Below the pieces are notes generated by a model, which was not told the origin of the DNA, did not search any database, and saw only the letters and a list, made by a program, of their open reading frames with translations. A DNA stretch of 64,000 bases from a virus. The stretch lies in the IMG/VR virus record IMGVR_UViG_3300045988_144755, one strand, 5' to 3'. Within the stretch, counting starts at the first letter, position 1; the number at the start of each line of letters is the position of its first letter. A program made the translations under genes and the position numbers. This document shows, one piece after another, positions 1,009 to 56,213 of the stretch.

Positions 1009-1662
1009 TTACTGGGCGTTGTTCAGGATGTTTTCAAGCGTGTTGATGCAGGTTCTAATCTTGGCAAGGTCAGCACTCGACCAGTCAGCTTCATGCTTGC
1101 GGTAGAACTTGATCACATTGTGCAGACGGTCGAGCCCTACGCTGTTCGCCGTTGGGCGTCGTTCGAGGGTTAGGGCTGTATATGTCTGATGCTGAAAAGT
1201 CTTGACAAACCGGGACTTGGCAGCGCGCCAGATGTTCTTGTCGATGCGGTTCATGACAAAGGCATTATCCTTTGCTATATACCGTACAGCGGTTACAGCT
1301 TCCCGGTCGTCCGGGGGATACAGCTTGCCCGTGATGCTATCTCGAATGTATCCGCCAGCCATGATCCGAATCGCTTGTAAAGCCTGACGCCATTCGTGGG
1401 ATTGCGGATCACATATCTTAGCAAGCCGTGTCAAGCGCGTGCAATCCTTGTCTGTGAAAACCTGATGCAGTCCAGCCTTGATCAGTATGTCGAAAACCTT
1501 TGTCACACTTGAACGCAAGAGCGGCAGAGATTGACAAAGACTATCGAACTGCTGGTTGTCAAGGTGAGCTGGATCATAAGACGCATAAGCAGATTCCGGA
1601 TCAACTTGAGCGGCGCGGGTGCGGATAGGAGCAATGGCGGGGAGGTTAGCAATGGCTTGCAT
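1009..1662 (-). CDS. Hypothetical protein (217 aa), inverted-repeat-flanked, lower-GC possible moron/regulator
   Basis: ORF 1009..1689; likely start at internal Met (MQAIANL) preceded by AAGGAGA. GC ~52% versus ~60% elsewhere. No family recognised. Confidence 0.55.
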   Translation of the reverse strand: MQAIANLPAIAPIRTRAAQVDPESAYASYDPAHLDNQQFDSLCQSLPLLRSSVTKVFDILIKAGLHQVFTDKDCTRLTRLAKICDPQSHEWRQALQAIRIMAGGYIRDSITGKLYPPDDREAVTAVRYIAKDNAFVMNRIDKNIWRAAKSRFVKTFQHQTYTALTLERRPTANSVGLDRLHNVIKFYRKHEADWSSADLAKIRTCINTLENILNNAQ

Positions 1663-1680
1663 GGTAGTTCTCCTTTTCAT

Positions 1681-1722
1681 TAGGCGCACTACTCCTGCTT
1701 AGAATCTAATCGGCAACGGCTA
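1681..1722. repeat. Right copy of the inverted repeat flanking the 1009–1662 gene
   Basis: gcgcactactcctgcttagaatctaatcggcaacgg matches the reverse complement of 963–1003; an extra 8-bp hairpin (cggcaacg / cgttgccg) follows. Confidence 0.6.
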
Positions 1723-7926: not shown

Positions 7927-9270
7927 ATGGCTCGTAAAACGCCGCAGGCCATTCAGCAGTACCGTGGTACCACCGAACAGCACGCCACCTACACTGGCCC
8001 CATTGGTGAACTCACCGTCGATACCGACAAGAAGGTTGTCGTTGTTCAGGATGGCACTACCGCTGGCGGTATCCCGATGGCCCGCGAAGACCGCAAGGTT
8101 GCTGGCGATGCGTACATCAAGGTGAACAACGCTGCCGAGGGCACCCTTGCTGCCGACCTGACCCTTACCGTGGATATGACGCAGGTCGCCGCTGACCTCG
8201 TTTCCACCGATGAAAACAACGGCCTGTCCGTAGGCACCGACAACAAGCTGTTCGCCAAGGCTCCTGATGCCGATCTCATCCTTCGCCCCAACGACAAAAT
8301 CCTCCATGACGTGGACGGCAAGGTTGCCGCTGACATCTCCGTCAGCTACGACCAGCCCTCTGGCGTTCTGAACATCATCGGTCATGACGGTTCCACCGTT
8401 GTCGCTACCGCCACTATCCCCTCCAGTACGTCCGCCCTGAAGGGCGTCGAGCTCGTGGAAGGCAAGCCTTCCGCTGACGGCGAGGAAGTCGAAGGCGACT
8501 ACCATGTGAGCCTGCGCGTGGCTTATAAGCAGGGTGGTGCCCAGAAGTATTCCGATGCCGCTGGCGTGACCTTCACCGCCACCAAGGGCACCGAGAGCGC
8601 GGGCGTCGCCATGCCTGAGTTCACCGTGCCTGAAGACGCTACGGATCAGAAGTACGAAGCCGTGTTCATGGGTCAGGAAGCGGAACAGGCCGTGGCTGCC
8701 ACTGCCGCCTTCGCGTTCACCGATGGCTCCACCATGCGCCTTGCGGAAGGTATGCTGTACTTCACCCCGCAGATCGGCATCGAAGCTGGCACCTACCTGC
8801 ACTTCATCTTCGTGCTGTCTGACGGCACCCTCGCCGACCTGTACATTGACGTTACCGACCTCGTGGACGTGTACACCGCCGGACAGGGCATCTCCATTTC
8901 CGGCAAGGTGATCTCCGTCAAGCTCGGCGCTGATGGCGGCGTGAAGTTCGACGAATCCGGCAACATCGTGGTGGACTTCACCAAGATTGTTTCCACCGAT
9001 GAAGACAATGCGCTGAAGGAAGGCGCTGACGGCAAGCTCTCTGTGACGGTCGTGTCCGCTGATGAAGGGAACCTCATCAAGACGGGCTCGGACAAGGGCG
9101 CTCTGCTGACCAAGGACGACATCACCGACGCGGTGGAAGAAATCGTGTCCGGTGTCGTCACCGCCGGAACCATGTGCTCCGAGCTTCGTGCCGAAACCGC
9201 TGACAACCAGATTGTCTGCAATGCTGGCAAGATGTACGTCACTTCCGATTACGGCACGATGGGCGAGTAA
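7927..9270 (+). CDS. Tail fibre protein (447 aa) with conserved N-terminal virion-anchor motif
   Basis: N-terminus QQYRGTTEQHATYTGPIGELTVDTDKKVVVVQDGTTAGG is the tail-fibre/HylP-type N-terminal motif; also PF03406-like repeats; AGGAG RBS. Confidence 0.75.
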   Translation: MARKTPQAIQQYRGTTEQHATYTGPIGELTVDTDKKVVVVQDGTTAGGIPMAREDRKVAGDAYIKVNNAAEGTLAADLTLTVDMTQVAADLVSTDENNGLSVGTDNKLFAKAPDADLILRPNDKILHDVDGKVAADISVSYDQPSGVLNIIGHDGSTVVATATIPSSTSALKGVELVEGKPSADGEEVEGDYHVSLRVAYKQGGAQKYSDAAGVTFTATKGTESAGVAMPEFTVPEDATDQKYEAVFMGQEAEQAVAATAAFAFTDGSTMRLAEGMLYFTPQIGIEAGTYLHFIFVLSDGTLADLYIDVTDLVDVYTAGQGISISGKVISVKLGADGGVKFDESGNIVVDFTKIVSTDEDNALKEGADGKLSVTVVSADEGNLIKTGSDKGALLTKDDITDAVEEIVSGVVTAGTMCSELRAETADNQIVCNAGKMYVTSDYGTMGE

Positions 9271-9311
9271 TATCGCAATCTTATAACCCTTTAAAATAGG
9301 GGGATAATATT

Positions 9312-10166
9312 ATGGCTATGGATGGCCTGACTCCTGTGGTTGACATTGGTGGTAATGGCAATGGCGGTTGGGGTGATTGGGGCGGTGCCCTGATCGGCGG
9401 AGCTATTGGTGGTGCCGTTGGTTCCGCATGGGGCGACCGTCGCGGGAACAACTGCTGCAATAACGGCGGCGGTTGCTGCAACAATGGCGGGAATACCGCT
9501 GCCTTTGGTGAGACGTTCATCATGGACAGCCTGAGCGGTGCCCGGAGCGACATCAACTCCATCGGGCGTGACAACCTGATGCAGACCGCGGGCGTCCAGA
9601 ATGCACTGTGTCAGGGCTTCGGTGGCGTCAACGCCACTGTGGAACGTACCGCCCTTGGGCAGCAGATTACCTCGGCGCAGGGATTCAGCGGGCTCAACAC
9701 TGCGATTCTCACCAGTTCCATGCAGGGCCAGCTCGCCGCCAAGGACGCGCAGCTTTCTGCTCTTGCCGCTACCAATGCGGCTGAGATGCAGGGCCTGCGC
9801 AATACTTTCGAGCTGAAGTCCAGCATCGACAATTGCTGCTGCACCACGCAGCGTTCCATCGACAATCAGGGTTGCCAGACTCGTGAAACCATCCTTGCCG
9901 AAGGGTGCGCCACCCGTGGCGCTATCCATCAGGAAGGGGAAGCTACCCGCGCTCTGATTGCCCAGATTGACCGCGAACGCCTGCTGCGTGAAATGAACGC
10001 CAAGGATGCGGAAATCGCGTCCCTCAAGGCGCAGAACTTCAACACTGCGCTGGCGAACAACAACGCGGCCCAGACTCGTGCGGACATGCAGTCCATGTTG
10101 AACACCATCTTGAACCACATGACCTACAAGACTTCTACCACCTCTGGTGGCGGAACCACTGCCTGA
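9312..10166 (+). CDS. Gly/Cys-rich hypothetical protein with coiled coil (284 aa)
   Basis: RBS AGGGGGA. Peptide NNCCNNGGGCCNNGGN, then Gln/Ala-rich coiled-coil segment and a second Cys cluster (NCCCTTQ...GCQTRE...GCATRG). Confidence 0.5.
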   Translation: MAMDGLTPVVDIGGNGNGGWGDWGGALIGGAIGGAVGSAWGDRRGNNCCNNGGGCCNNGGNTAAFGETFIMDSLSGARSDINSIGRDNLMQTAGVQNALCQGFGGVNATVERTALGQQITSAQGFSGLNTAILTSSMQGQLAAKDAQLSALAATNAAEMQGLRNTFELKSSIDNCCCTTQRSIDNQGCQTRETILAEGCATRGAIHQEGEATRALIAQIDRERLLREMNAKDAEIASLKAQNFNTALANNNAAQTRADMQSMLNTILNHMTYKTSTTSGGGTTA

Positions 10167-10237
10167 GTCTCCCGGCGGTAGTATGACAAAGCCCCTCTGG
10201 GTCACACCAGAGGGGCGACAATGTAAGGAGAGTCATT

Positions 10238-10933
10238 ATGGCTGGTTTGAGATTCTTTTTGGGCGGCAAGCCATCTGGCGGCGAGATGGAGAACAGGCAG
10301 CACGACCGTTGGTCTGAGCCGAGGAATCATTATGACGATGGTCGGGATATGCGACAGCATTATGGGCGGCCTTCTTCTCCGATGGAGAACCGCTTCGATC
10401 AACCGGATTATCGGCCCATGCGTGGGTTGTATAATCTTGAGCCGCAGCGTTCTGATCAGCCGGAACCCCACATGCGCGGGCTGTATAATTACAAGCATCC
10501 TGATGGGATGAACCATTACGACCCGCAGCGGCATGGCGGCGCACAGGGCAATTTTGTCCCGCTTCCCGAAGATGATGTGCGGTTCCATGAGGAATGGAAC
10601 AACGAAGGCGGCAACCGTATCGGGTATATCTCCGATGTGCGGAACCACGATGGCAGCCATTCCGATGGGGGCCATTTTGAGCGGGGCGTTGCTTCTGTGA
10701 TGGAGTCGCTTCCTGCGGTGGGCGGCTACGCCAAGATTGTTGAGTCCGTACTGAAAGTTCTCCAGAATCCCCCGGCGACGTGGGCGGCGTACTTGAAAAA
10801 TAAGGACTATGCTGGTATCGCAAAGATGGAAGCGAAAGAGCTTATGTCTGCGATTGAGAAGCATAAAGCCCCCGCTGACATTCATAAGGAGATTACCCAT
10901 ACCATTGCGGCGTTAATGCGCATGGGCATGTAA
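10238..10933 (+). CDS. His/Asp/Arg-rich hypothetical protein with internal MRGLYN repeat (231 aa)
   Basis: Strong AAGGAGAG RBS. Two copies of PMRGLYNLEPQR / HMRGLYNYKHPD; low complexity. Confidence 0.5.
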   Translation: MAGLRFFLGGKPSGGEMENRQHDRWSEPRNHYDDGRDMRQHYGRPSSPMENRFDQPDYRPMRGLYNLEPQRSDQPEPHMRGLYNYKHPDGMNHYDPQRHGGAQGNFVPLPEDDVRFHEEWNNEGGNRIGYISDVRNHDGSHSDGGHFERGVASVMESLPAVGGYAKIVESVLKVLQNPPATWAAYLKNKDYAGIAKMEAKELMSAIEKHKAPADIHKEITHTIAALMRMGM

Positions 10934-10954
10934 GGAACTTGCAAAGGAGCGAAC

Positions 10955-11515
10955 ATGGCGGCAGGCACTTCAATTTTTCTCCCGGTCATGGAATACAATG
11001 GGGATACTTGGCATCTCCAGTATGACCCTGAAAATCCGATGTCGGTACGTCCCGACTTGGTTGGCGGCAAAATCACCAATATGTCGTGTGCCCCGGTGAA
11101 GCTGCCCCGTCAGCATCCTGATAAGCAGTTCTATATGGTGGTCGTCAGCATCCTGATGCCCGCCAGCATGGAGCCTTCTGGACGGGCTATCCCTGAAAAG
11201 CGTCTGCTCGGTTTCCGGGTGTATGACTATCTTCCGGCAAATCCGTCCACCCTTGACGCTTTGAACCTCAATGAGATGGTTTTCTATATTGCAGAACCCC
11301 GCCCCGGCAGTGACGCGCAGACGCTTCTGGAAACAGTCCTTGGGCTTAAGGTGCAGGAACAGCCTGCGGCTGAAGCGGTGAATACGGACTGGACAAAGAT
11401 GCTCATGCAGCAGGATGCCCCGGAGCCGCAGCCGGAACCAGTGGCCCCGCAGCAGCGTGCCTATACTGCGCCTCAGCAACATACCATGCAGTTGTCTGAC
11501 GGAACGGTGAGGTAA
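10955..11515 (+). CDS. Hypothetical protein (186 aa)
   Basis: AAGGAG RBS; sits between fibre genes. Confidence 0.5.
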   Translation: MAAGTSIFLPVMEYNGDTWHLQYDPENPMSVRPDLVGGKITNMSCAPVKLPRQHPDKQFYMVVVSILMPASMEPSGRAIPEKRLLGFRVYDYLPANPSTLDALNLNEMVFYIAEPRPGSDAQTLLETVLGLKVQEQPAAEAVNTDWTKMLMQQDAPEPQPEPVAPQQRAYTAPQQHTMQLSDGTVR

Positions 11516-11520
11516 ACCTT

Positions 11521-11778
11521 ATGTCGCATGATCCTATTTATGATAAGGTACTTGAGCGCGTTGTTACCAATGCGGAACATCTGATTTCCGTTCATGACAA
11601 TGCGCAAGGGCTGCTGAATGTGGCGATGCGTGGGGCTATGCCGTGGGCTACCCCTTTGGTTATGAAGGGTGTTCTGCCTTCTGTGGATAAGTTGGAAGTG
11701 CTGTGTACACAGCTTCTGGCGATTGTTATGAGAAGTGACCCTTCGGTTATGCAGGCCGAGGAAAAGAATACTAAGTAG
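11521..11778 (+). CDS. Hypothetical protein (85 aa)
   Basis: GAGGT RBS; plausible coding composition. Confidence 0.45.
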   Translation: MSHDPIYDKVLERVVTNAEHLISVHDNAQGLLNVAMRGAMPWATPLVMKGVLPSVDKLEVLCTQLLAIVMRSDPSVMQAEEKNTK

Positions 11779-11787
11779 GGGGAATTT

Positions 11788-12777
11788 ATGCCTCGCAAAA
11801 TTCCTAAGCCAGTACAGCAGTTTCGCGGGACGACTGCGCAGCACGCTACCTATACTGGCCCAGAGGGTGAAATCACCGTTGATACCACAAAGCACACGGC
11901 AGTTGTGCATGATGGGCAGACGGCTGGCGGCTTCCCTTTGATGCGGGAGCATGACATTGTCGATGATGTGCAGATTACGGCATCTGTCGGCACTGCTGAG
12001 GCTATTTGGAATGTGTCTGTCGCTGTCGCTGATGGTGACGGTAGTTGGACTGCTCCTTTGGCCTTGAGCATCCAAGGCAAAGTTAATACGCCCATTGCAA
12101 GGGTCGTGAACGCGCAGCCCGGTGCTGACCATCTTGGAGGCGTGCGGGTTGTCTACAAGGGGGAAACGCAGCAGGCACAGACTGGTTTCTCTCAGACTGG
12201 CGGGACGGCAAATTTCTCGTTCACTGACGGGACTACTTGTGCGGTGGTTGCTGCGGCTGAATCTGATGGGAAACAGGCTATCACGTTTACGTTCACGTTT
12301 GCCGCTACTGCCAGTGGGCCGTTCCTGTGTGTTTCTGGCGTGCGCAAGAATGTGGCCTATGAAGTTGCCGATCCGCTCCTGTCTCAAGACCCGATGAACG
12401 CCCTTACCGCTGGCACTGACGGTAAGATTATGCTCGACGGTTCTGGTCTGGACAAGAGCTATCTTCCGCTGTATTTTCCCTTTGAAAGTGATGAAATAGT
12501 GCCGGAAATCCATACGTTCTTCCCTGACCATTGCAGGGTCATTCTGGTGGATGGCCTTCAGTCTGATGGAACGAGCGTGGATGCTCTGGGCATCACGGTT
12601 CAGCTCGATGGGGACAGTGAGGGCACCTCGGCTGTGACGCTCAAGAATGGGCAGATTGACAGCGATGGCGCTTTTGCGGGAAAGGCTGTAGTCATTCGGT
12701 GTTCTGGGCGTACTACGGAGACGTGGGTTTCTGCGTTGCTTCGTCTGACCCCCACAATGCTGGCGTCCGATTTATAG
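11788..12777 (+). CDS. Second tail fibre paralog (329 aa) sharing the N-terminal anchor with 7927–9270
   Basis: N-terminus PVQQFRGTTAQHATYTGPEGEITVDTTKHTAVVHDGQTAGG is ~65% nt-identical to the start of 7927..9270; the C-terminus is unrelated. Confidence 0.7.
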   Translation: MPRKIPKPVQQFRGTTAQHATYTGPEGEITVDTTKHTAVVHDGQTAGGFPLMREHDIVDDVQITASVGTAEAIWNVSVAVADGDGSWTAPLALSIQGKVNTPIARVVNAQPGADHLGGVRVVYKGETQQAQTGFSQTGGTANFSFTDGTTCAVVAAAESDGKQAITFTFTFAATASGPFLCVSGVRKNVAYEVADPLLSQDPMNALTAGTDGKIMLDGSGLDKSYLPLYFPFESDEIVPEIHTFFPDHCRVILVDGLQSDGTSVDALGITVQLDGDSEGTSAVTLKNGQIDSDGAFAGKAVVIRCSGRTTETWVSALLRLTPTMLASDL

Positions 12778-12859
12778 CATTCACGCACGATAAGTTTGTA
12801 AGTTCCCGATTTTTTTACCCAGAAAAGTCGGGAACTTTTTATTTATATTTGGAGGGTTT

Positions 12860-14443
12860 ATGGACAGTTTGCTTTGTGGTTATCTGCGGTTTGGTAAGCC
12901 TTTGGAAAAGCAAAGTTTGCTTTTTGTAGTAGATACTGAAGCTACTACATCAGGAGGAGTACAAACGGCAAACCCAGTTCATGCTTTTCCTAGGCTATCT
13001 AGCGGTAATTTATCTACCGCTACTTTAACTATAGATTGGGGTGATGGTACTTCGACAACTATTCCAAAGAATACACCATACGATAATAATTACTTTACTG
13101 ATTATTCCACGCATACATATGAAGCTCCCGGAAAATATATTGTAACTGTAGAGGCGTATGATTTTTCTTCTTGTTCCTTTGGCGTAAATTCTAATACGTC
13201 TGCCGCATTTTCAAAATTAAAACTGTGGCGGGATACAGTAATTAGCATAGGCCCAGAAGATGCAGAAGAATATTCTTTGCCTTGTATGAAGAGCGATTTT
13301 TCATATGCTTTTGCTAGTTGTATGAAATTGACCAAAGTACCATTCGGATTATTTAAGAATAATCCGATGATTACTGATTTTTATAGTGTATTTTATTTTT
13401 GTACAGCATTAACTGAAATTCCAGAAGATTTATTCGCGTATACTGATAAAGTTACTAATTTATCTTTTGCTTTTTGTAATTGTATAAAATTGACAGGGCC
13501 TATCCCGGAAGGGTTGTTCGCTAATAATCCCGCTGTAACGTCATTTGACAATATATTCCAGCAATGTACAGAGTTAACAGGGCCTATCCCGGAAGGGTTG
13601 TTCGCTAATAATCCTGCTGTAACGTCATTTGACAATATATTCCAGCAATGCACAAAGCTATCAGGGTCTATCCCGGAAGGGTTGTTCGCTAATAATCCTG
13701 CTGTAACGTCATTTAACTACACATTCTACGAGTGTTTAGGATTAACTGGTACTATTCCTGAAGGGCTGTTCGCTAGTAACCCTGATGTAACGTCATTTGA
13801 TAATACATTTGTGCGCTGCGCAGGGTTGTCAGGGTCTATTCCTGAAGGGCTGTTCGCCAATAATCTTGCTGTAACGTCATTTGATAGTACATTCATGCAA
13901 TGTGCAGGGTTAACAGGGTCTATCCCAGAAAATTTGTTCGCCAATAACACTGCTGTGACTTCATTTGATTCTGTATTTTATGCTTGCTACTCGTTAGCAG
14001 GAGATATTCCTGAGAATTTATTTATTCATAATAATGAAGTAACTTCATTTGCTGGTGCATTTTTTGCTTGTAGAGAATTAACAGGGGCTATTCCTAGCGG
14101 TTTATTCTCTAGCAAGACTAAACTAACTTCTGTTGAACGTGTGTTTGAAGGATGCACAGGATTAACGGGGGCTATTCCTGAAGAACTTTTTGCTAGTAGT
14201 CCTTTAATCACTTCATTCAGTTATGTGTTTTCTGAATGTACAGGGTTAACGGCGGTACCTAAAGCACTTTTTGAAGAAAATATAAATGCTGTAACTTTTA
14301 TTGAGACATTTTATGGTTGTTCTGGTATAACAAGTGAAGTTCCTGAGCTGTGGATTTCACACCCGGATGCGACAGGCACATACTGCTATTTGCGCTGCAC
14401 CAATGCCGCCAACTACGCTGATATTCCCGCTGATTGGAGATAA
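12860..14443 (+). CDS. PKD-domain + BspA-type leucine-rich-repeat protein (527 aa), low-GC
   Basis: PKD signature IDWGDGTST...HTYEAPGKYIVTV. ~13 tandem 23-aa repeats (LTGxIPEGLFANNPAVTSFDNxFxxC), BspA/TpLRR-like. GC ~38% in a 60% GC genome. GGAGGG RBS. Confidence 0.75.
   Translation: MDSLLCGYLRFGKPLEKQSLLFVVDTEATTSGGVQTANPVHAFPRLSSGNLSTATLTIDWGDGTSTTIPKNTPYDNNYFTDYSTHTYEAPGKYIVTVEAYDFSSCSFGVNSNTSAAFSKLKLWRDTVISIGPEDAEEYSLPCMKSDFSYAFASCMKLTKVPFGLFKNNPMITDFYSVFYFCTALTEIPEDLFAYTDKVTNLSFAFCNCIKLTGPIPEGLFANNPAVTSFDNIFQQCTELTGPIPEGLFANNPAVTSFDNIFQQCTKLSGSIPEGLFANNPAVTSFNYTFYECLGLTGTIPEGLFASNPDVTSFDNTFVRCAGLSGSIPEGLFANNLAVTSFDSTFMQCAGLTGSIPENLFANNTAVTSFDSVFYACYSLAGDIPENLFIHNNEVTSFAGAFFACRELTGAIPSGLFSSKTKLTSVERVFEGCTGLTGAIPEELFASSPLITSFSYVFSECTGLTAVPKALFEENINAVTFIETFYGCSGITSEVPELWISHPDATGTYCYLRCTNAANYADIPADWR
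13494..13700 (+). repeat. Three near-identical 69-bp tandem repeats inside the LRR gene
   Basis: gggcctatcccggaagggttgttcgctaataatcc.gctgtaacgtcatttgacaatatattccagcaatg repeated ×3 at ~97% identity; flanked by more diverged copies. Confidence 0.8.
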
Positions 14444-14472
14444 GGTATACCCATAACCAAGGAGCGATTGCT

Positions 14473-14643
14473 ATGGATTCATCCCCGATTGAGCCCCCTG
14501 TTCAGTGCCAGCCTGTAGTTGTTCAGTGTACGTGCTGCCAGTCGGTGCGGCAGAATGAAGAGCTTGACCCAATCGGGGGTGTTTTCCTTGTTCTGTTTAT
14601 AGTGTTTGCCGCTTCTCTGGGCGTATGGTTACATAGGAGTTGA
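14473..14643 (+). CDS. Small Cys-rich membrane protein (56 aa)
   Basis: AAGGAG RBS before internal Met of ORF 14434..14643; C-terminal TM helix. Confidence 0.35.
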   Translation: MDSSPIEPPVQCQPVVVQCTCCQSVRQNEELDPIGGVFLVLFIVFAASLGVWLHRS

Positions 14644-14656
14644 GGCTGCGAAATAA

Positions 14657-14697
14657 AAGCTCCCTACCCGATGAAGGTAGGGAGCTTTTTTACGGGC
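14657..14697 (+). terminator. Rho-independent terminator ending the rightward fibre/LRR operon
   Basis: gctccctacc-cgatgaa-ggtagggagc followed by tttttt. The ORF-track start 14671 sits in the loop, so it is not a real start. Confidence 0.7.
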
Positions 14698-14712
14698 CTC
14701 GCCTTTTTCATA

Positions 14713-14761
14713 GGCGGCACCTCCACGGTATCGTTCAGTGTGAGTGCCTCGACATATGCGC
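14713..14761. repeat. Left 49-bp inverted repeat (putative inversion crossover site) at the start of the promoterless fibre cassette
   Basis: ggcggcacctccacggtatcgttcagtgtgagtgcctcgacatatgcgc. Its reverse complement matches 16079–16127 with 1 mismatch. Encodes the shared peptide GGTSTVSFSVSASTYAL. Confidence 0.8.
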
Positions 14762-15228
14762 TCACGTTAACATCCCCGACCAATGTAAAGACTAGGGTTC
14801 CTGAGCCTGTTACTTTTAATGTAACAAAAAATAATAAACCTTATACTGGCCCGGTGCAGCTTACTTCTAATATCTCACAAGTACCTGCACAAACTATTAA
14901 TGCACAAAATGGTGTTGGGTCTACGACTATTACTTTTACAGTACATGGAGATTATATTATTTATTTGTCTGTTGGCGATTTGACTACACAATATAATTAT
15001 TCGACTACAGCTTTAACTTACGAATATGTTAATCTTGGTGACGATATAACTGGATGGACTTGCCCGCCATCTGCTCCTTTGTATCTTTATTGGCATGGCG
15101 TGCGTGTTTACCAAGCTAATGGCCCGGATACTACATCAACACGTATTCAAGCAAGTAATGGTAAAGTATATTACAAAGGAGTACACCAATCAATGTATAG
15201 TTACTCTATTGCAGAATATGACCATTAA
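14762..15228 (+). other. Promoterless, start-less alternative C-terminal cassette for the Ig-like adhesin, inverted relative to the gene it would fuse to
   Basis: Frame is open from the inverted repeat. Encodes an Ig-like segment (TFNVTKNNKPYTGPVQ...TITFTV) plus a distinct ~90-aa C-terminal domain. Begins directly after a terminator, so it is silent in this orientation. GC ~38%. Confidence 0.55.
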
Positions 15229-15511
15229 TGGCGCGTCCACCACGATTGCAGGGGAGGCGAAGCCCGGCCCAACCTATCTGTATGATAATGAGCATGTTTG
15301 GACTGTTTCCAGAACTAACCTTCCCGGAGGGATGGAGTTCAATTCGGTCTTTTGTATTTGGGGTGGTCAGTCTATTGCAAATACTATGGACTTGGATGCT
15401 ACTTCGGTGGTTGGTTCTGATGGATATACATACCTTCGCGGGGAATATCAGGAACAAGAAGTGAGTGGGTCTACCACAAACAGCCATTACTCCATAGCCA
15501 GACAAGAATAA
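15218..15511 (+). CDS. Cassette-internal small ORF (97 aa), homologous to the extreme C-terminus of the 15552–18956 protein
   Basis: MTINGASTTIAGEAKPGPTYLYDN...YTYLRGE...HYSIARQE versus ASTTIAGEAKPEPVYKYDD...HTYLRGE...KYAIARQV; ATG overlaps the upstream TAA. Confidence 0.45.
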   Translation: MTINGASTTIAGEAKPGPTYLYDNEHVWTVSRTNLPGGMEFNSVFCIWGGQSIANTMDLDATSVVGSDGYTYLRGEYQEQEVSGSTTNSHYSIARQE

Positions 15512-15518
15512 AACAGTT

Positions 15519-15545
15519 CCGCCCGCTACATTTAGTAGCGGGCGG
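15519..15545. terminator. Hairpin between convergent cassette and adhesin gene (possible bidirectional terminator)
   Basis: ccgcccgctac-attt-agtagcgggcgg; modest T-runs on both sides. Confidence 0.4.
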
Positions 15546-15551
15546 ATTCAT

Positions 15552-18500
15552 TTATACCTGCCGTGCTATGGCATATTTATGTGTTCTTGTGTACGACTGG
15601 TCATTCGTTTCTTTCAGTTCTCCACGAAGATATGTATGACCATCAATACCCTCGGTAGGAGTATCAGTATCTCCCCGACCGCCATTATAAGCGACCATCT
15701 GTCCTTCATAGAACAATATGACAAAAGATTCCCCTATACTACCGTCAGGAGACCAAGTACTCTGCCATGTCCAACTATTGCCATCATCATACTTGTACAC
15801 AGGTTCGGGCTTTGCCTCCCCTGCAATCGTGGTGGACGCGCCATTGCCAGAAGCATCAGTAAAGGACACGGTATACGAACCTCCATTCGCATTGGTGCTG
15901 GTTAAAGTTTCAGTGAATTGCCCTGCCGAATTGGTGGCCTTCGCCCCGGTGGTGCCGCCAGAAAGACCGCCAAAGCTCGTTACGCTAACCCCGCTGGTGA
16001 TGGGGTTGCCGTTGCGTTTGCAAGTGAAGGTGACGGCTGTAGCGGTATTGTACGCCAGCGTGTTCGGGCTTGCCGAAAGCGCATATGTCGAGGCGCTCAC
16101 ACTGAACGATACCGTGGAGGTGCCGCCGCCAAACGAGAGAGTCACGGTTTTGCTGCCTATGGACGTTGCCGTCAGGGAGACGGTGAACTTGCCACCGGAT
16201 GCTGTTGCCGAGGCAGGGCCAGAAAGCCCGGAGCTGTACGACAGACTGACGGAGCCAGCGTAGTTGGCGTTGTTCTTCTTGACCGTGAAGGTGACGGAGT
16301 CGGGGTCGTTGGTGTAGAGCTGAGAGATGTTTGCCGAAGCAGCGTAAGTAGCGGCTGCCACCGTAAATGTTGCCGTTGCTGACCCACCGCCGAACGAGAC
16401 GGTGACGGTTTTATTGCCCGTGGTGGTAGCGGTCAGCTTGTTCGTGCATTTGCCGTCAGTGGCAGTTGCCGAGGTGCTGCCGGAAAGCCCAGAGGGAAGC
16501 GAGAAGGTAACGGCACCATCATAAGCGACGTTGTTCCGCTTCACGGTGAACGTCACATTGGAAGCCAAATCTTCCGTCAGGGCTGTGGGCGAAGCCGATA
16601 CTGTGTATGTAGCTGCCGATACGGTGAAGGCAATGGCGTCTGAGCCACCGCCGTAGGTCAGAGTGATATTGCCTGCTGTAGTTCCGCTTGCTGCCACTGA
16701 GATGGTAAACTGACCAGAAGCGTTTGCCGTGGCAGATGCCGGGCCACTGAGGTTTCCGCTGTATTTGATGGTGACAGCCCCGGCATAAACTGCGTCGTTC
16801 TTCTTCACAGTGAAGGTGACGGACTTGCTGTTGTAGGCTTGGACGCTGGTGCTGTTGGCAGAGGCCGTGTAGGTGGCTGCCGAGATGGTCATGGTATCGG
16901 ACGCATTCCCGCCGCCGAAGGTAGCTTTGATGGTACCCGTTCCGGTGGCGTCTGCGGATACGTTGATGGTGAACTGACCAGAGGCGTTCGCTGTGGCGGA
17001 TGCCGGGCCAGAAAGCCCACCGCTGTACGTCAGCGTCACAGCGCCAGCGTAGGCCGCATTGTTCCGCTTCACGGTGCCAGTGATGGACTTTGTTTCATCA
17101 ACCCGGATGGTGGTAGGACTGACGACGAAGGAGTAGGTGGACGCTGTGACGGATACGGCGTCAGTCGCTGACCCACCACCAAAGGTAAACGTCAGGGTCT
17201 TGTTCCCGGCTGTGGTGGCGGTAGCCGTGAGTTTTACCACACCATCGGTTGCCGTAGCGGATGTGGTGCCGGAAATGCCCGTGGGATACTTCACGGTGAC
17301 GGCACCGGAATAGTTCTTGCCATTGCGTTTCACGGTAGCGGTGATGGTGCCGGAGACGTTGGTCTTGAGCGCAGCCGAGGTGATTTCAGCGGCATAGGTC
17401 GCAGCCTGAGTATCCACCGTGTAGGAGGCGCTTCCGCCGCCGAAGGTGGCTTTCACGGTGCCGTCTGCGGTTCCGGTTGAGGTCAACGTGATGCTGAACT
17501 GCCCAGAGGCATTGGAGGTAGCCTTTGTAGGCGTACCAGTGATGCCGCCAGAGTAGGCCAGCGTAACGGCCCCGGCATATGCCTTGCCGTTGCGGGTAAC
17601 AGTGATGGTGTAGTCAGCTTCCTCGTAGGCGGTGATAGTCTTGCTGCTGGCGTTGATGGCATACGTGGCGGCAGCAACGGTGATGTCCGCCGTATCCGTC
17701 CAGTCATCAACCTTGACCGTCAGCGTTTCCGTTCCGGTATCCTCATAGGTCGCCTTGTACGTGTACTTGCCTGCGGAGAATGTGACCGAGGTGCCGTTGA
17801 TGGTGCCCTTTCCGGCGTATGCCTTGCCGTTCCGGGTAACGGTCACAACGGTGGAACCCGCCTCATACTGCGTAAATTCATCGTTGGAGATTGCCAGCGT
17901 GTAGGTAGCGGCGGTTACGGTCGCGGACAGTTTCACGCTGCCGCCACCATAGGTTGCGGTGATTGTCCCGCTGCCCACGGTATTGCCTGTGATGGTGAAC
18001 GTCCCGGTGCCGGAAGAGTTGGTGGTGACTTTCGTATCACCGGATACGCCGCCGGAGTAGGCCAGCGTGATGGCACCAGCATAGGCTTTTCCGTTCCGTT
18101 TTGCGGTGATTGTGACTTCTGCGTCTTCAAACCGCTGAACAGTTTTAGGCGTGATGCTTGCCGTATAGGTGGCTTCAGTGACTGTGACGGATACAGCATC
18201 ACTGACAGTTCCGCCCCCGAAGGTGGCGCTGATGGTAGACGCGCCTGCGGTAGCGCCTGTGACGGTGATGGACACGAGGCCGGACGCATTCGAGGTTGTG
18301 GATTTTGTGCTGCTGGTAATGTTGCTGTTATGCGCGAGGGTGACGGCTCCCTGATACGGTTTTCCGTTTCGCTTGACCGTGAAGCTGACGGCCTCAGATT
18401 CGTATTCCTGCACCGTGTAGTCTTCAGCTTCAACGCTGTAGGTTGCCGCAGCTACAGTGACGGACAGCGTGATGGTTTGCCCATCAATGACCAACTTCAG

Positions 18501-18956
18501 GGATTGCTTCCCGGAAGTATTGTACGTTGTCGTATAGGTGGCCTTGCCGTTAGTGAAGGTAATGGCCTTGCCAGCAAGGGTAGCGGCACCGGAGTAGGCT
18601 ACGCCATTCCGTTTCGCAGTAATCGTAAGGGTGCCCTGTTCGTACTGCGTGAACGACCCGGACGAAGTTGCCGTGTATGTCGTTTGTGCGACGGGGTAGG
18701 TTTGATCCAGAACGGTGGTACCATTTACTTTTACAACGAGGGGATAATCTCCGGGAGCATCATGGGGGCCGAGGGTGACGTTTGCTACCCCGTTGGAGTT
18801 CAGAGTGTATTCCACCCCATTAACGCTGATTTTTTTTCCGGGAATGAGAAGGTCATTATCATAGAGGGTGATGGCGCTTGTGACCGTATCGCCAGTATAC
18901 TCTGGAAGCCCATCTACACTGGCGATGTAGAGATGGTCTGTGTAGTACCCGTACAT
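15552..18956 (-). CDS. Large Ig-like repeat adhesin / tail fibre (1134 aa)
   Basis: ~12 tandem ~90-aa bacterial-Ig-like repeats (TFTVKRNGKAYAGAVTLAYSGG...SATFGGG). On the opposite strand to the surrounding structural genes. C-terminal ~175 aa lie inside the IR-bounded segment. Confidence 0.8.
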   Translation of the reverse strand: MYGYYTDHLYIASVDGLPEYTGDTVTSAITLYDNDLLIPGKKISVNGVEYTLNSNGVANVTLGPHDAPGDYPLVVKVNGTTVLDQTYPVAQTTYTATSSGSFTQYEQGTLTITAKRNGVAYSGAATLAGKAITFTNGKATYTTTYNTSGKQSLKLVIDGQTITLSVTVAAATYSVEAEDYTVQEYESEAVSFTVKRNGKPYQGAVTLAHNSNITSSTKSTTSNASGLVSITVTGATAGASTISATFGGGTVSDAVSVTVTEATYTASITPKTVQRFEDAEVTITAKRNGKAYAGAITLAYSGGVSGDTKVTTNSSGTGTFTITGNTVGSGTITATYGGGSVKLSATVTAATYTLAISNDEFTQYEAGSTVVTVTRNGKAYAGKGTINGTSVTFSAGKYTYKATYEDTGTETLTVKVDDWTDTADITVAAATYAINASSKTITAYEEADYTITVTRNGKAYAGAVTLAYSGGITGTPTKATSNASGQFSITLTSTGTADGTVKATFGGGSASYTVDTQAATYAAEITSAALKTNVSGTITATVKRNGKNYSGAVTVKYPTGISGTTSATATDGVVKLTATATTAGNKTLTFTFGGGSATDAVSVTASTYSFVVSPTTIRVDETKSITGTVKRNNAAYAGAVTLTYSGGLSGPASATANASGQFTINVSADATGTGTIKATFGGGNASDTMTISAATYTASANSTSVQAYNSKSVTFTVKKNDAVYAGAVTIKYSGNLSGPASATANASGQFTISVAASGTTAGNITLTYGGGSDAIAFTVSAATYTVSASPTALTEDLASNVTFTVKRNNVAYDGAVTFSLPSGLSGSTSATATDGKCTNKLTATTTGNKTVTVSFGGGSATATFTVAAATYAASANISQLYTNDPDSVTFTVKKNNANYAGSVSLSYSSGLSGPASATASGGKFTVSLTATSIGSKTVTLSFGGGTSTVSFSVSASTYALSASPNTLAYNTATAVTFTCKRNGNPITSGVSVTSFGGLSGGTTGAKATNSAGQFTETLTSTNANGGSYTVSFTDASGNGASTTIAGEAKPEPVYKYDDGNSWTWQSTWSPDGSIGESFVILFYEGQMVAYNGGRGDTDTPTEGIDGHTYLRGELKETNDQSYTRTHKYAIARQV
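16079..16127. repeat. Right 49-bp inverted repeat inside the adhesin gene (constant/variable junction)
   Basis: gcgcatatgtcgaggcgctcacactgaacgataccgtggaggtgccgcc; inverted copy of 14713–14761. Confidence 0.8.
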
Positions 18957-19082
18957 AAACTCTCCTGAATTGTTAATGATTAAATACAGTTACTGTTAAG
19001 TATAAGGGAAATTTGCGAAGATGTAAATGTTGCGGTATGGAAGTAATTGCTTGCGGGTACAGAACTTTTCATCGGAGCGATA

Positions 19083-19545
19083 TATGAGCGTTATTCTTTC
19101 CCAAACCCGGTGGCCTTCCTTGGCGCTCGATTTGGCGATCATGACGGTGCCGGGTTCCCCATTGACGGAACTGAACACCATCTATGAAACGTATTCGTTG
19201 ACTCAGAATGAGCTGCGGGAAATTTTGAACAACCCCTATTTCCAGCAGTTGTTCAATGACGCGTTGGAGCAGGTGAAGGCACAGGGCAACAAGGCGGGCG
19301 CGGCCTATCGTGCAATGACGCTTTCTCAGGCTTTATCGGAGAAGCTGTTCCGGGATGCGAACGGCAACAGGATGGAGCCGAAGGACATGATCAAATTTTA
19401 CGAGTTGTTGCTGAAGTCTGCGGGGTTGCTGGACAACAAGGACACGCAGGTCAACACGCAGGTCAATGTCGGCGTCGCGCTGCCGTTGCCGACAGGGTTG
19501 AACAACCCCAAGCTCAAGCATGTGCAGGCTATAGGAACCAAATAA
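19083..19545 (+). CDS. Putative terminase small subunit (154 aa)
   Basis: Immediately upstream of the terminase large subunit; size and position typical. Start chosen at internal Met with GGAGCG RBS. No motif proof. Confidence 0.4.
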
Positions 19546-19557
19546 AGGAGCGGGCAT

Positions 19558-21063
19558 ATGGCTTTCAGATATGATATGTCCCCTACTGGCAAGGCGTTCC
19601 ATGAGTGCGACAAATACGTAAAGATGCTCTGCGGGCCTTACGGGTCTGGGAAGTCCTGCTGTTGCGCTATTGACGTGCTGTCGTATGCCTGCGCTCAGGC
19701 GGTGGCCCCGGACGGGTATCGGTATGTCCGCGTCGGTGTCGTGCGTTCCACGTATCCTGAGCTTTTCTCCACGACGCGGAAATCCTTGCTTGAGGTTTTG
19801 CCGGAATCGTGCGGGACGATTACGACAGGCACATCCGGGACGCAGGGGCTGTACATAATCCCGCTGGTGGACGGGACGAAAGTCCACCTTGAAATTGATT
19901 TGGTTGCCGCTGCCAGTGTCGATGACGAATGGCGCTTGCGTTCAAGGAACTGGACGTTCGCATGGATGAACGAAGCCAACGGCTGTATCGAAGAAGTGTT
20001 CATGATGATCACGCAGCGTATCGGGCGCTACCCTTCCGATGATTTGGGAGGTGTGTCGTGGGGCGGGGTCATTATGGATTTCAACCAGCCCGCGCCGGGG
20101 ACGTGGGTGGACAACTTTATGCGGAACCCGCAGCCAAACTGGGCAGTGTTCCGCCAGCCGCCAGCCGCGTTCAAGCATGAAGATGAGCATGGGAACATTA
20201 CGTATACCGTCAATCCCAATGCGGAGAATTTGCGGAACCTAGGGGCAAAGGAAGAAGGCGACCCGGAAGATTTTCCTGCCGAGGAGCGGGGCAAGCGGTA
20301 CTACAGGAACCAGATCGACGCCCTCATCAAACAGGGGCGGTATGATGTCGTCGATAACCAATACTGCATGTTGGATGTCCCCGTGGTTGACGGGAAGCCA
20401 GTCTATCCGGGGTTCAGCAAGCGGAAGCATGTGGCCCCGCAAGTCCTTGAGCCCCTCATGTTCCATGATATTATCATCGGCATGGATCAATCCGGCATCC
20501 ATCCGGCAGCGGTTATCCTGCAAAACCAATACGGAAAGTGGTGTGTCCTCGACGAACTCTACGCCAATAACGAGGGCTTTGAGAATTTCCTCTATGGTAT
20601 GCTGGTTCCCCGGTTGCGGGAGAGGTATTCGACGAATCCGATAGTTGCCGCGATTGACCCTAGCAACCAGCGGGATTCGTGGACGGCGACGACGCCGAAG
20701 GAACGTCTTGCCGAGGCGGGCATTGCGGCTGTGACCGAATTGACCAACAGCCCCAAAATCCGTATCCAGATGGTAGAGCACATGCTCAACTTGGATACTG
20801 GCGGTTTGCTGGTAAGCCCGAACTGTGAGCTGCTGGTCAACGGGTTTGTCCATGAATATCGGTATCGCAGGCTTCGGGGTGGGGGTTCCATCGGTGCGGC
20901 CTATACGCCACAACCGGAGAAGAACGACGCAAGCCATGTTCATGATGCGTTGCAGTATGCGGCGCTGCTCATCTACAGGGATGCGACGAAGGATGACCCG
21001 GCAGCGGAAGCCCTTGCAAAGAAACTTTCGGATAAACGGCGCGTACTGCGGAAGGTCGTATAA
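19558..21063 (+). CDS. terL: Terminase large subunit (501 aa)
   Basis: Walker A CGPYGSGKS near the N-terminus; acidic nuclease-type C-terminal half; AAAGGAG RBS; followed by the portal gene. Confidence 0.8.
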   Translation: MAFRYDMSPTGKAFHECDKYVKMLCGPYGSGKSCCCAIDVLSYACAQAVAPDGYRYVRVGVVRSTYPELFSTTRKSLLEVLPESCGTITTGTSGTQGLYIIPLVDGTKVHLEIDLVAAASVDDEWRLRSRNWTFAWMNEANGCIEEVFMMITQRIGRYPSDDLGGVSWGGVIMDFNQPAPGTWVDNFMRNPQPNWAVFRQPPAAFKHEDEHGNITYTVNPNAENLRNLGAKEEGDPEDFPAEERGKRYYRNQIDALIKQGRYDVVDNQYCMLDVPVVDGKPVYPGFSKRKHVAPQVLEPLMFHDIIIGMDQSGIHPAAVILQNQYGKWCVLDELYANNEGFENFLYGMLVPRLRERYSTNPIVAAIDPSNQRDSWTATTPKERLAEAGIAAVTELTNSPKIRIQMVEHMLNLDTGGLLVSPNCELLVNGFVHEYRYRRLRGGGSIGAAYTPQPEKNDASHVHDALQYAALLIYRDATKDDPAAEALAKKLSDKRRVLRKVV

Positions 21064-43119: not shown

Positions 43120-43757
43120 TCCTTCGGCTTACCCAAGACATGACCCGTCTGGCCCTTCGGATAAGGGACTCGTGGGAGGGGCGGCAGCTTACGGACTGGC
43201 AGCGTCTGCAACTGCTCATCCTCCCCGGACAGCGGGACATGATGGATCAATGCGGGCCTAACGGGTCTCCTTGGATTCTTACCGGGTGCTGGCCCGGCAA
43301 GCGTACTAACGTGGATGTCGCCAACTGGAGGCCGGATTTCCCGGCCCTCATCTGCCCCGCCTTCACGCTGGACGCTGACGGTGCGGTTGTCTTCCGCATA
43401 GACGATAGGATTCACAGCTTACCGCCCGGTCGATACACGGGAGTCATTCGTGTAACGCCTAGGCAGGTGCCTCCTTACGACCCGCACGATTTGTGCGGGT
43501 CATCCTGCAAACCCTTGCCGCCCGGCCCGGTGCTCAAGCCATTCCCCATCAAGCCGGATGGGAAAGTTATCCCCCCCGAATATCTTGTCGGGGCGCAGGA
43601 CTGCAACGTAGACTTCTCCACACCGCCACCGCCGCCCGCGCCGCCGCCATACTGCATACTGGCAGAGTTTGACATTGACCTTGGGCCAATGTGCGTTGAC
43701 CATTTTATTGATCAGGCTTCGGTAGATTTCTCACTGGCTTCATGCGGAGATGAATGA
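43116..43757 (+). CDS. Hypothetical tail-associated protein (213 aa)
   Basis: ATGA overlap with the upstream gene; Pro-rich. Confidence 0.5.
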
Positions 43758-44536
43758 TGGCAAAACATTTCGATTGTAGAACCCCCGGTGCCGTGCCGCC
43801 GGAAGGCGTGATGTATATCCCCGTCCCGGTCGATGCCGTGGACGGGCAGTTGCTTATCTATGACAGCTCATCCCCCTGCCTTGTGCGGTGGGGTTGCGTC
43901 GCCAAGGGCGAGAAGGGCGACACTGGCCCGATGGGGCCGCAAGGCCCACAGGGTAAGCAGGGCTTGCAGGGCAAGCAGGGGAACCAAGGCGTGCCCGGCC
44001 CGGCGGGGCCGCAAGGCCCGCAGGGTAAACAGGGTGAGCAGGGTGTGCCCGGTGCGCAAGGGCCTCGTGGCAACACTGGTGCCCGCGGCGAGAAGGGCGA
44101 CAAGGGGGACAAAGGTGACACTGGCCCGCAAGGTATTCGCGGTTTACAGGGCATCCGAGGCGAGAAGGGGGATCAGGGAGAGAAGGGCGAGACGGGCGCG
44201 ACTGGCCCGATGGGGCCTCGTGGCGAGCGTGGGTTTAAGGGAGAGACGGGCGAGCGCGGCCCGAAAGGTGAGAAGGGAGACAAGGGAGATCGCGGCGAGC
44301 CGGGGCCTGAAGGCCCGATGGGGCCGCGTGGAAGGGATGGAGCTCCCGGATTGCAAGGCCCGCAAGGGCCTGTAGGCCCGGCGGGGCCGTCCGTCCACAG
44401 CAAGTTGAGCAACCTCGACTATGAATCCAGCGGGCATACCGGGTTCGCCTCGGCACAGATGGTCGATGAACTCTGGAACTACATCACCCTGCTGGAGAAC
44501 CGCATCAATGATCTGGAACGGCGGCTGGCAGTATGA
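43754..44536 (+). CDS. Collagen-like repeat tail fibre protein (260 aa)
   Basis: ~50 consecutive G-X-Y triplets ([19 protein letters not shown]...). Confidence 0.7.
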
Positions 44537-54481: not shown

Positions 54482-55459
54482 CTACGCTATGGTGTAATCG
54501 TCACCGACTTTGGAATCACAGGCCACGGGGAAACCGGGGAGCCAATCGGGAACGCTCGACATATCCGCTTCCATGAGCGACTGCACCCGCTCGGCATCGG
54601 CTTCCGGCACCACGGTAATCCATGCGTCATGCACATTGGCCTTGAGCGGGATGCCATGCTCATACATCCGGCACGCCTGCCACATCAGCAACTGGAAAGC
54701 CAAGCCTTGGATCAGGTTCTCACACAGCAGGCCGCCGTAGATTTTGGTGTCCACCATGTTCTTCCCGAACGGGCGCTTGTAGAAGAACTCCTCCCGCCGC
54801 CCATCCGTCTGCACATGCAGGCCGGGATACCGAAGGATATACCCTGACGGCATCTTGACGCTAGGAGCCATGTTCTCCGCCCCATCGTACAGGTTGCCCT
54901 TAATGAAGGGCATGGCCTTGAACTGGAAGTAATCGTCGTTTGGCCCGCCAAATGTCCCTTCGGAACCTAGGTACAGCGCCCGGATAACTTCAAGGCAACG
55001 GCCCCAGAACTGGACGATGTTGCCATGCGTCAGACGGTAGACACTGTGGGCGTGCTTCGCCATCTGGTGGTGCTGTTCCAAATCAGCATGGAGCTTCACG
55101 CCGTCGCCCAAGAGGGAGTTGCTGAACTTCCTCCAGCCTACCTGATAGCCAGCGGACAAGATGGCTTTCTTACCAACATTCCGGTACATGGTCATACGGG
55201 GGTCGCCCGCCTTGTTCCCGGCTTTGATTTCCTTCCACGGCACGTTGAAGATATTCTCGGCAAGTTGGGAATACGGGTCTTCCCCGGTGCGGAACTTATC
55301 CAAGAGGTCGTCCTGCCGGGCAATGTATGCCAACAGGCGCGCTTCAATCTGACTTGAGTCAGCGGCTACGACCTTATACCCCTTCGGGGCGACGATGGCC
55401 CGGCGAAGCGTAAGCATCTTCGGGTTGCGTTTACTAAGATTCTGCATTGTGTTCAGCAT
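54482..55459 (-). CDS. Family-A DNA polymerase, C-terminal fragment (motifs A, B, C) (325 aa)
   Basis: AADSSQIEARLLA (motif A), RNVGKKAILSAGYQVG (motif B-like), NVHDAWI (motif C). Begins MLNTMQNLSKRN, inside the conserved PNLQNIP block. Confidence 0.8.
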   Translation of the reverse strand: MLNTMQNLSKRNPKMLTLRRAIVAPKGYKVVAADSSQIEARLLAYIARQDDLLDKFRTGEDPYSQLAENIFNVPWKEIKAGNKAGDPRMTMYRNVGKKAILSAGYQVGWRKFSNSLLGDGVKLHADLEQHHQMAKHAHSVYRLTHGNIVQFWGRCLEVIRALYLGSEGTFGGPNDDYFQFKAMPFIKGNLYDGAENMAPSVKMPSGYILRYPGLHVQTDGRREEFFYKRPFGKNMVDTKIYGGLLCENLIQGLAFQLLMWQACRMYEHGIPLKANVHDAWITVVPEADAERVQSLMEADMSSVPDWLPGFPVACDSKVGDDYTIA

Positions 55460-55521
55460 AGGTCGTTACTCTATACCCGTTCTTGCGAACTGCTGTACGT
55501 CACCGTACAGATCAGACTATA

Positions 55522-56103: not shown

Positions 56104-56213
56104 TATATACCTCTCTTCAACGGTAGATAAGCAGTTGTGGTATAGCTTGGCTCAGGATTGTCTTACATAGTAAGATGTTCCCTGAGTTCACACGGTTTTA
56201 CAACCTCCAAAAA

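Follow-up and report, generated by a model that had tools for sequence, protein, structure and literature searches.

An exchangeable leucine-rich-repeat protein beside an invertible tail fibre in a common human gut podophage

Leucine-rich-repeat (LRR) proteins of the DUF285 or “BspA family” kind are already catalogued in phages, and inversion switches in tail fibre genes are classical, as exemplified by the invertible segments of Mu (G/Gin), P1 (C/Cin), and p15B (Min). The Rin shufflon of a Bifidobacterium prophage is reported to be a further invertible tail-fibre segment (PMC6109161). PARCELs are DUF285 / TIGR02167 repeats that vary in number, spread horizontally, and display dyad symmetry in their DNA (Roske et al. 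2010; PMC2996958). A lactococcal DUF285 protein contributes to adhesion to mucin and plastic (PMC5071367), and two DUF285 proteins of the giant virus AaV (AaV_052 and AaV_382) were detected in purified particles (PMC7507832). Here we describe a locus that invites comparison with all of these in the IMG/VR record IMGVR_UViG_3300045988_144755. The stretch analysed, 64,000 nucleotides (nt) long and referred to below as the window, is nearly the entire genome (∼67.8 kb) of an SU10-like podophage that is common in human gut metagenomes. Segment 12780-15551 of the window carries the gene for a 527-amino-acid (aa) protein with a PKD-like domain and an LRR array, followed by silent, inverted cassettes for alternative C-termini of a tail fibre. 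Since this type of protein has already been seen in other phages, the locus is a well-documented example and not a new kind of system. Its novelty is modest and lies in the free-standing architecture of the LRR protein, in a series of alleles and repeat numbers on a near-isogenic backbone, and in an active fibre switch that comes without a recognisable invertase.

The LRR protein is encoded on the plus strand by an open reading frame (ORF) at 12860..14443, preceded by a GGAGG ribosome-binding site. It stands alone and has no signal peptide; its N-terminus is non-hydrophobic (maximum 12-aa hydropathy 0.89), with neither an export signal nor an anchor. An AlphaFold2 (AF2) model built on an alignment of its homologues (pLDDT 90.8, pTM 0.90) comprises an N-terminal beta-sandwich (residues 18-100) and a long solenoid. 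Foldseek returned 44 matches to the model in the PDB at E ≤ 1e-3, every one of them a leucine-rich-repeat structure (probability up to 1.0), including plant receptor kinase ectodomains, Toll, SHOC2, and FBXL2, with TpLRR (6mlx) at rank 49. Plant LRR receptor kinase ectodomains were also matched by phmmer, at E ∼1e-8. We are therefore confident in the prediction that the protein folds as an LRR solenoid. At the family level it matches Pfam DUF285 (PF03382) over residues 174-292 with 32.6 bits (gathering cutoff 25; E = 7.2e-8), and a Pfam scan gave no match to LRR_5 (PF13306) at E ≤ 0.1. Among 45 homologues, Pfam matches were to DUF285 (22), PKD (13), PKD_4 (12), LRR_8 (5), and LRR_5 (4). The term “BspA-type” used in a first-pass annotation of this DNA thus applies in the NCBI naming sense only: the protein has the superfold in common with BspA / TpLRR (LRR_5) proteins and differs from them in its family match and in a repeat period of 28 aa instead of ∼23 aa.

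The PKD-like part occupies approximately residues 17-100 (12908..13159, plus strand; strands E18-99 in the AF2 model) and contains the motif IDWGDGT...HTYEAPGKYIVTV. The general PKD pattern WGDG...HTY...G.Y.V is found in the protein, and both of the Pfam models concerned stay below threshold, PKD (PF00801) scoring 21.6 bits against a cutoff of 23.5 and PKD_4 (PF18911) 14.4 against 27. The architecture proposed at first pass, a 527-aa protein combining PKD-like and LRR parts, is accordingly upheld by motif, predicted beta-sandwich, and LRR fold, with the PKD assignment itself remaining sub-cutoff by profile score.

Thirteen LRR units of 25-30 aa (modal length 28 aa) with the consensus F..C..LTG.IPE.LF.NN..VTSF, followed by a conserved C-terminal cap, span 13310..14440 on the plus strand and are modelled with a pLDDT of 93-99. 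The period of the array is 84 bp or 28 aa (tandem repeats finder period 84), a shift of 84 bp giving 62% self-identity and a shift of 69 bp giving 29.5%; copies aligned in a 69-bp register share just 20-32% identity. An earlier count of ∼13 repeats was therefore right in number and wrong in unit length, which had been given as 23 aa. Of the three youngest 84-bp units (13494..13745, plus strand), units 1 and 2 (13494-13661) share 94% identity across the full 84 bp, rising to 98.6% in the first 69 bp, and unit 3 is 80-83% identical to either. The 207 bp at 13494-13700, previously described as three ∼97% identical 69-bp tandem copies, hold ∼2.5 copies because the true period is 84 bp. Recent expansion or contraction of the array had been argued from those copies; the copies do not stand as described, and a change in repeat number is supported by a five-repeat allele that shares the N-terminal 169 aa (see below).

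Several properties recall PARCELs: the DUF285 match exceeds its cutoff, the amphipathic tandem repeats vary in number around a conserved core of Phe, Cys, and Leu, horizontal transfer has left its signs, antisense ORFs extend along the array, and the cellular relatives are surface or secreted proteins. The phage protein differs in its unit of 28 aa instead of 25-26 aa, in having no match to the NCBIfam 26-residue-repeat model TIGR02167 at E ≤ 0.01, and in being phage-encoded and devoid of a membrane-targeting signal. It differs further in the absence of significant DNA dyad symmetry. The self reverse-complement local score of the repeat array was 17 compared with 16.0 ± 2.6 for codon shuffles, a single repeat unit did not rise above shuffles, and the array contained no inverted repeats of at least 14 nt.

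Proteins of this type had been called unusual in phage virions, which is an overstatement. The 527-aa protein matches phrog_9915 at E = 6.6e-101, related repeats were found by tblastn in 61 of 50,697 phage records, and 53 viral structures in BFVD match at E ≤ 1e-3, some of these occurrences lying within annotated tail proteins. The best BFVD match is a full-length counterpart of 538 aa (TM 0.69) from a gut Myoviridae contig. In the P2-like Klebsiella phage ST16-OXA48phi5.4 the LRR module is the C-terminal part of gp35, “tail protein I,” whose gene lies between baseplate and collar-fibre genes, and in Phapecoctavirus (tuntematon) it resides in gp128, “tail protein,” with a tail fibre gene adjacent; both labels are annotations, not experiments. 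Repeats in the two proteins are 34-36% identical to those of the 527-aa protein over 70-80% of the query and, as here, are encoded in baseplate or tail-fibre clusters. They differ in belonging to tail proteins of 890-1008 aa with their own N-terminal anchor, whereas the present protein is free-standing at 527 aa. Closer in architecture is an unrelated phage of ∼64 kb (L015, 10001-13128) with two tandem stand-alone PKD-LRR paralogues whose N-terminus is signal-less as in the 527-aa protein; the same signal-less N-terminus occurs in another phage orthologue (P0031) and in the product of its neighbouring gene. A search with the N-terminal domain for additional phage orthologues gave just three near-self matches, owing to its word filter. 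Cellular homologues, 35-45% identical, are surface proteins of greater size that carry BACON or Mfa-like domains, and those examined have lipobox-/lipoprotein-like or pilin-like N-termini and chromosomal contexts. Like the AaV DUF285 proteins and the Ig-like (immunoglobulin-like) and PKD decoration domains of phages, the LRR protein would be a case of adhesin-type domains on virus particles; AaV belongs to another virus realm, and the architectures differ. A literature search found no experimental study of LRR receptor-binding proteins in phages.

The low-GC foreign character of the segment is real. It had been noted at first pass and was confirmed by calculating GC in windows of equal length and GC at third codon positions (GC3), composition being far from uniform. 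Segment 12780-15551 has 40.9% GC, compared with 55.8% for the whole window and 56.5% and 55.3% for its two flanks. Other windows of the same length (2772 bp) average 0.568 with a standard deviation (SD) of 0.021 and a minimum of 0.48, so that the trough, at 7-8 SD under same-size windows elsewhere, is far beyond the local range. The earlier contrast of ∼38% with ∼60% is accurate for the LRR ORF (38.6% GC, GC3 28%) and too strong for the segment as a whole, in which the trough is uneven. The region of orf56, a small gene downstream of the LRR gene, has 50% GC; silent cassette 1 has 37.1% (GC3 23%), silent cassette 2 has 48.1%, and the expressed fibre tip has 43.8%. The fibre gene has a GC3 of 64%, against 28% in the LRR ORF. 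That the repeat sequence does not impose low GC is seen in L015, where one of the two paralogues has native GC (52%, GC3 69.5%) and the other 43.6%. Another patch of low GC (39.7%) is present in the window at 1-1000; it contains small ORFs only and adjoins a 226-aa ORF (1009-1689, minus strand) without a family match.

An identical 527-aa protein occurs in 54 indexed blocks of the assembly collection, from which 22 contigs of human-gut type (65-70 kb) were read. The metagenome ERR688639 yields a contig with the same sequence as the window. Phages ∼98% identical in the flanks hold different LRR alleles in the same slot. One relative (L001, 10001-10915) has an allele of 304 aa with five repeats, the first 169 aa of which are identical to the 527-aa protein. 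Two others (L020, 4555-5601; L023, 3840-4886) have an allele of 348 aa with ∼7 repeats, 39% identical to the 527-aa protein and at 45.7% GC, in flanks that are 98% identical. The breakpoints of this replacement fall at 12889 and ∼14394, divergence extending from 30 nt into the ORF to ∼50 nt before its stop codon. A fourth, partial LRR allele was also found, and the ORFs are intact in all alleles examined. Comparison across related contigs thus bears out a difference in copy number, with 13, 5, and ∼7 units. A 222-aa version (P0121) was considered as a truncated allele or pseudogene and rejected: it ends within the repeats 25 bp from the contig end, an assembly break. A more distant relative (L025, 7700-10000; TerL 73% identical, 49.7% GC) has no LRR gene, no orf56, and no long Ig fibre, and its Mtd_N tail gene leads almost directly to a small ORF ahead of TerL.

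Nucleotide diversity (pi) in the LRR ORF is 0.005, ∼4-fold lower than in the adjacent tail gene (0.023) and the fibre gene (0.018), in a set of loci most of which were fetched by exact protein identity. The least biased relative (L011) shows 17 synonymous and 5 non-synonymous changes in the LRR ORF. The pattern fits a 527-aa allele that was imported recently, spread by recombination, and came under purifying selection.

Downstream of the LRR gene, the fibre cassettes are a real inversion switch that is used in nature, and their identification at first pass is borne out by the inverted repeats and by the occurrence of both orientations among relatives. The tail fibre gene (15552..18956, minus strand) encodes 1134 aa with Big_1 / Invasin_D3 Ig-like repeats and currently expresses the tip at 15552-15806 (minus strand). 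Two nested pairs of inverted repeats are involved, both being in-frame copies of fibre codons that stand ahead of promoterless alternative C-termini on the opposite strand. The outer pair is 50 nt long with one mismatch, its left arm at 14713..14762 (plus strand) being an in-frame copy of the fibre codons GGTSTVSFSVSASTYA and its right arm lying at 16078..16127 (minus strand). The inner core is 37 nt long with one mismatch, its left arm at 15229..15265 (plus strand) opening cassette 2 and its right arm lying at 15807..15843 (minus strand). Silent cassette 1 (14763..15228, plus strand) encodes an Ig-like domain and a distinct tip ending in ...SIAEYDH; silent cassette 2 (15229..15511, plus strand) encodes an alternative tip ending in ...SIARQE and is absent in L006. 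A bidirectional terminator-like hairpin (15518..15546) separates the silent cassettes from the fibre gene.

Segment 14713-16127 is flipped in four independent metagenome genomes (L005, L007/L009, L010, and L011). The inverted form has an intact fibre of 1114 aa ending in cassette 1, which after inversion is the expressed tip in L005, L007, L010, and L011. The two nested pairs permit three alternative C-termini, and a fourth tip is expressed in L020 and L023, the latter holding in its silent slot the tip that the window expresses. The orientation of the segment is mixed across the single-nucleotide polymorphism tree of its flanks and does not track it, so switching has happened repeatedly. A homology search with cassette 1 found relatives only within the present phage group. 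As in Gin, Cin, Min, and Rin systems, inversion at in-frame inverted repeats exchanges alternative C-terminal cassettes that lie on the opposite strand; this phage differs in having no detectable recombinase gene, in using coding copies of 37-50 nt as repeats, and in being apparently virulent. No serine or tyrosine recombinase (Resolvase, Phage_integrase) was found in the scanned ORFs of the window or in precomputed Pfam matches for the remaining ∼3.7 kb.

Some assemblies of relatives are odd at the repeats. A 954-aa fibre in L002 is not counted as a further fibre form; it spans a fold-back junction of both repeat arms (11854-11933) and is most likely an assembly artefact. P0122 is a 104-aa chimera of the LRR N-terminus and the cassette-2 C-terminus, and the P0121 / L028 contigs end inside the 84-bp array. 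The oddities in P0122, P0121 / L028, and L002 are likely artefacts of the repeats or of mixed orientations within samples.

We lean slightly towards reading the locus as a mosaic of separately exchangeable host-recognition modules, in which the LRR protein is a recently imported, recombination-swapped adhesin or accessory receptor-binding protein that is made late and rides on the tail, and in which the fibre tip inverts. The LRR gene has a fixed slot right after the genes for Mtd_N-type tail proteins, and new alleles would enter this slot by homologous recombination at the two conserved ends of the ORF (the first ∼30 nt and the last ∼50 nt), which would explain why phages otherwise ∼98% identical differ in allele sequence and repeat number. 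The 527-aa allele would have come recently from a lower-GC gene pool and been kept under purifying selection since. Expressed late, the protein would ride on the tail as an adhesin or accessory receptor-binding protein, with the variable face of the solenoid determining what it binds. The Ig-repeat fibre swaps its C-terminal tip by inversion at the two nested in-frame inverted repeats. The data above show composition, family, fold, allelic replacement, the difference in copy number, and inversions in nature. Gene position, allelic pattern, the tail-protein precedents, and the missing export signal make an exchangeable adhesin or receptor-binding accessory associated with the virion the most likely role of the LRR protein, and it is from these that we infer virion association and ligand binding.

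Several observations weigh against this reading. The LRR protein has no recognisable tail-attachment domain, only ∼17 residues preceding the PKD-like domain. A terminator-like hairpin (12800..12837, plus strand), with a 17-bp stem followed by a T-run, parts its gene from the upstream tail gene. The LRR precedents in cultured phages are fused to a tail protein and are not free-standing, and the LRR protein is not an essential structural part, since L025 has no such gene. The diversity comparison given above is biased, most loci having been retrieved through identity to the 527-aa protein. A link to a host was not found either: TerL had no relative in 185,579 species genomes. A genome scan with the LRR protein yielded one weak match only, in a metagenome-assembled genome of Clostridia. 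Portal relatives were tried as a clue to the host and were uninformative, the nearest being 22-27% identical and belonging to marine and rhizobial podophages, and no endolysin was recognised for host inference.

Part of the same evidence bears on the chief alternative, possible if rather unlikely, in which the LRR protein, together with orf56, would be a late accessory of the moron kind acting off the particle, either as an intracellular protein-binding effector or as a soluble binder freed at lysis. The LRR and orf56 genes form a unit bracketed by the hairpin at 12800-12837 and by a second one, a perfect 14-bp hairpin followed by a T-run that closes the unit (14655..14689, plus strand). LRRs are generic protein-binding scaffolds, and the foreign GC of the LRR gene, the lack of an anchor domain or signal peptide, and the dispensability indicated by L025 are all as expected for such an accessory. 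However, no sigma-70-like promoter was seen in the 22 nt between the hairpin at 12800-12837 and the LRR start codon, so that expression is probably by read-through, and a moron would likewise need read-through from the tail operon. The phage also looks virulent, with no integrase among the scanned ORFs of the window, and a search for a defence or anti-defence role gave no PADLOC matches. Homologous modules of cultured phages reside within tail proteins, and AaV particles contain two DUF285 proteins (PMC7507832), both of which speak against the alternative.

More speculatively, and we think improbably, the free-standing PKD-LRR protein could be a second, plug-in receptor-binding protein docked non-covalently on the tail, or a binder of gut or mucus ligands, forming with the recombinase-less fibre shufflon a two-layer locus for host-range diversification. 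Allele replacement and change in repeat number would then be one layer and DNA inversion the other; a host invertase, or general recombination between the in-frame repeats of 37-50 nt, could carry out the inversion.

A single origin for the whole segment is quite improbable. According to this proposal, made at first pass, a phage or host of lower GC donated the LRR gene together with the silent fibre cassettes in a single event. They are adjacent, and the LRR ORF and cassette 1 are alike in their low GC (38.6% and 37.1%, with GC3 of 28% and 23%). However, a stretch of 50% GC with orf56 separates the LRR ORF from the cassettes, and cassette 2 is at 48% GC. The parts also vary independently among close relatives: L006 is without cassette 2; L020 is without both orf56 and cassette 1; in L001 a different fibre module accompanies the 5-repeat LRR allele; and L020 and L023 have a different LRR allele. 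Cassette 1 has no detectable relatives outside the phage group, and no donor locus with both parts was found. Joint horizontal acquisition is therefore not supported, given both the differences in GC from part to part and this independent variation. That the LRR gene is no more than a PARCEL repeat element, selfish or in decay and without function for the phage, as might be supposed from the description of DUF285 / PARCEL repeats as horizontally spread, variable in number, and tied to mobile DNA (PMC2996958), is very improbable in view of an ORF intact in each allele, the 17:5 ratio of synonymous to non-synonymous changes, an identical protein across many samples, and an array without significant DNA dyad symmetry.

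The surroundings of the locus are those of a late structural region. A rightward late block runs in the order holin, two tail proteins headed by Mtd_N domains, LRR gene, and orf56, and converges on the leftward fibre gene of 1134 aa with Ig repeats, which abuts the packaging genes (TerL and portal nearby). The tail protein immediately upstream of the LRR gene (11788..12777, plus strand; 329 aa, 54.9% GC) bounds the island on the left and has normal GC; its Mtd_N head domain scores 40.6 bits in Pfam, and it matches phrog_9648, “tail protein.” It is one of two paralogous Mtd_N-domain tail proteins, the other, of 447 aa, being at 7927-9270, and no reverse transcriptase was found in the scanned ORFs. 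The Mtd_N head domain is known from the target of the Bordetella phage diversity-generating retroelement. On the other side of the LRR gene, orf56 (14473..14643, plus strand) encodes a small conserved protein of 56 aa that is rich in Cys at its N-terminus, CQPVVVQCTCCQ, and has a hydrophobic helix at its C-terminus. It is called beside the LRR gene in most relatives and is absent from L020.

Genes elsewhere in the phage include those for TerL, portal, major head protein, internal virion protein, a collagen-like fibre, and an SU10-type adaptor, together with DNA polymerase A, an SNF2 helicase, DUF927, and a CobS/CobT-like set. A megablast search of 9000-21000 against the 50,697 phage records found no close cultured relative. 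The collagen-like tail fibre protein (260 aa, 43754-44536) has many PHROG tail-fibre matches and ends the main structural block; because this fibre exists too, the phage has several distinct fibre-type proteins. In region 54482-57404, an HNH_3 endonuclease ORF (55522-56103) lies between a short ORF with a DNA_pol_A fragment (54482-55459) and a 396-aa ORF without a Pfam match, an arrangement that may reflect a homing endonuclease interrupting a polymerase gene. In one relative (L006, 1-1382), an IS200/IS605-type pair (Y1 transposase and OrfB / TnpB-like) is inserted upstream of small early/late genes.

The presence of an evidently active fibre switch beside a missing invertase gene is noteworthy. 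Genes for LRR proteins of the DUF285 or “BspA family” kind occur widely among phages, yet no phage function has been demonstrated for them, and the free-standing alleles with 5, ∼7, and 13 repeats on an isogenic background would offer a convenient system for ligand tests. The locus provides a natural example of variation in host recognition in a very common uncultured gut phage, variation that would proceed on two time scales, through exchange of LRR cassettes or alleles and through reversible inversion of the fibre tip.

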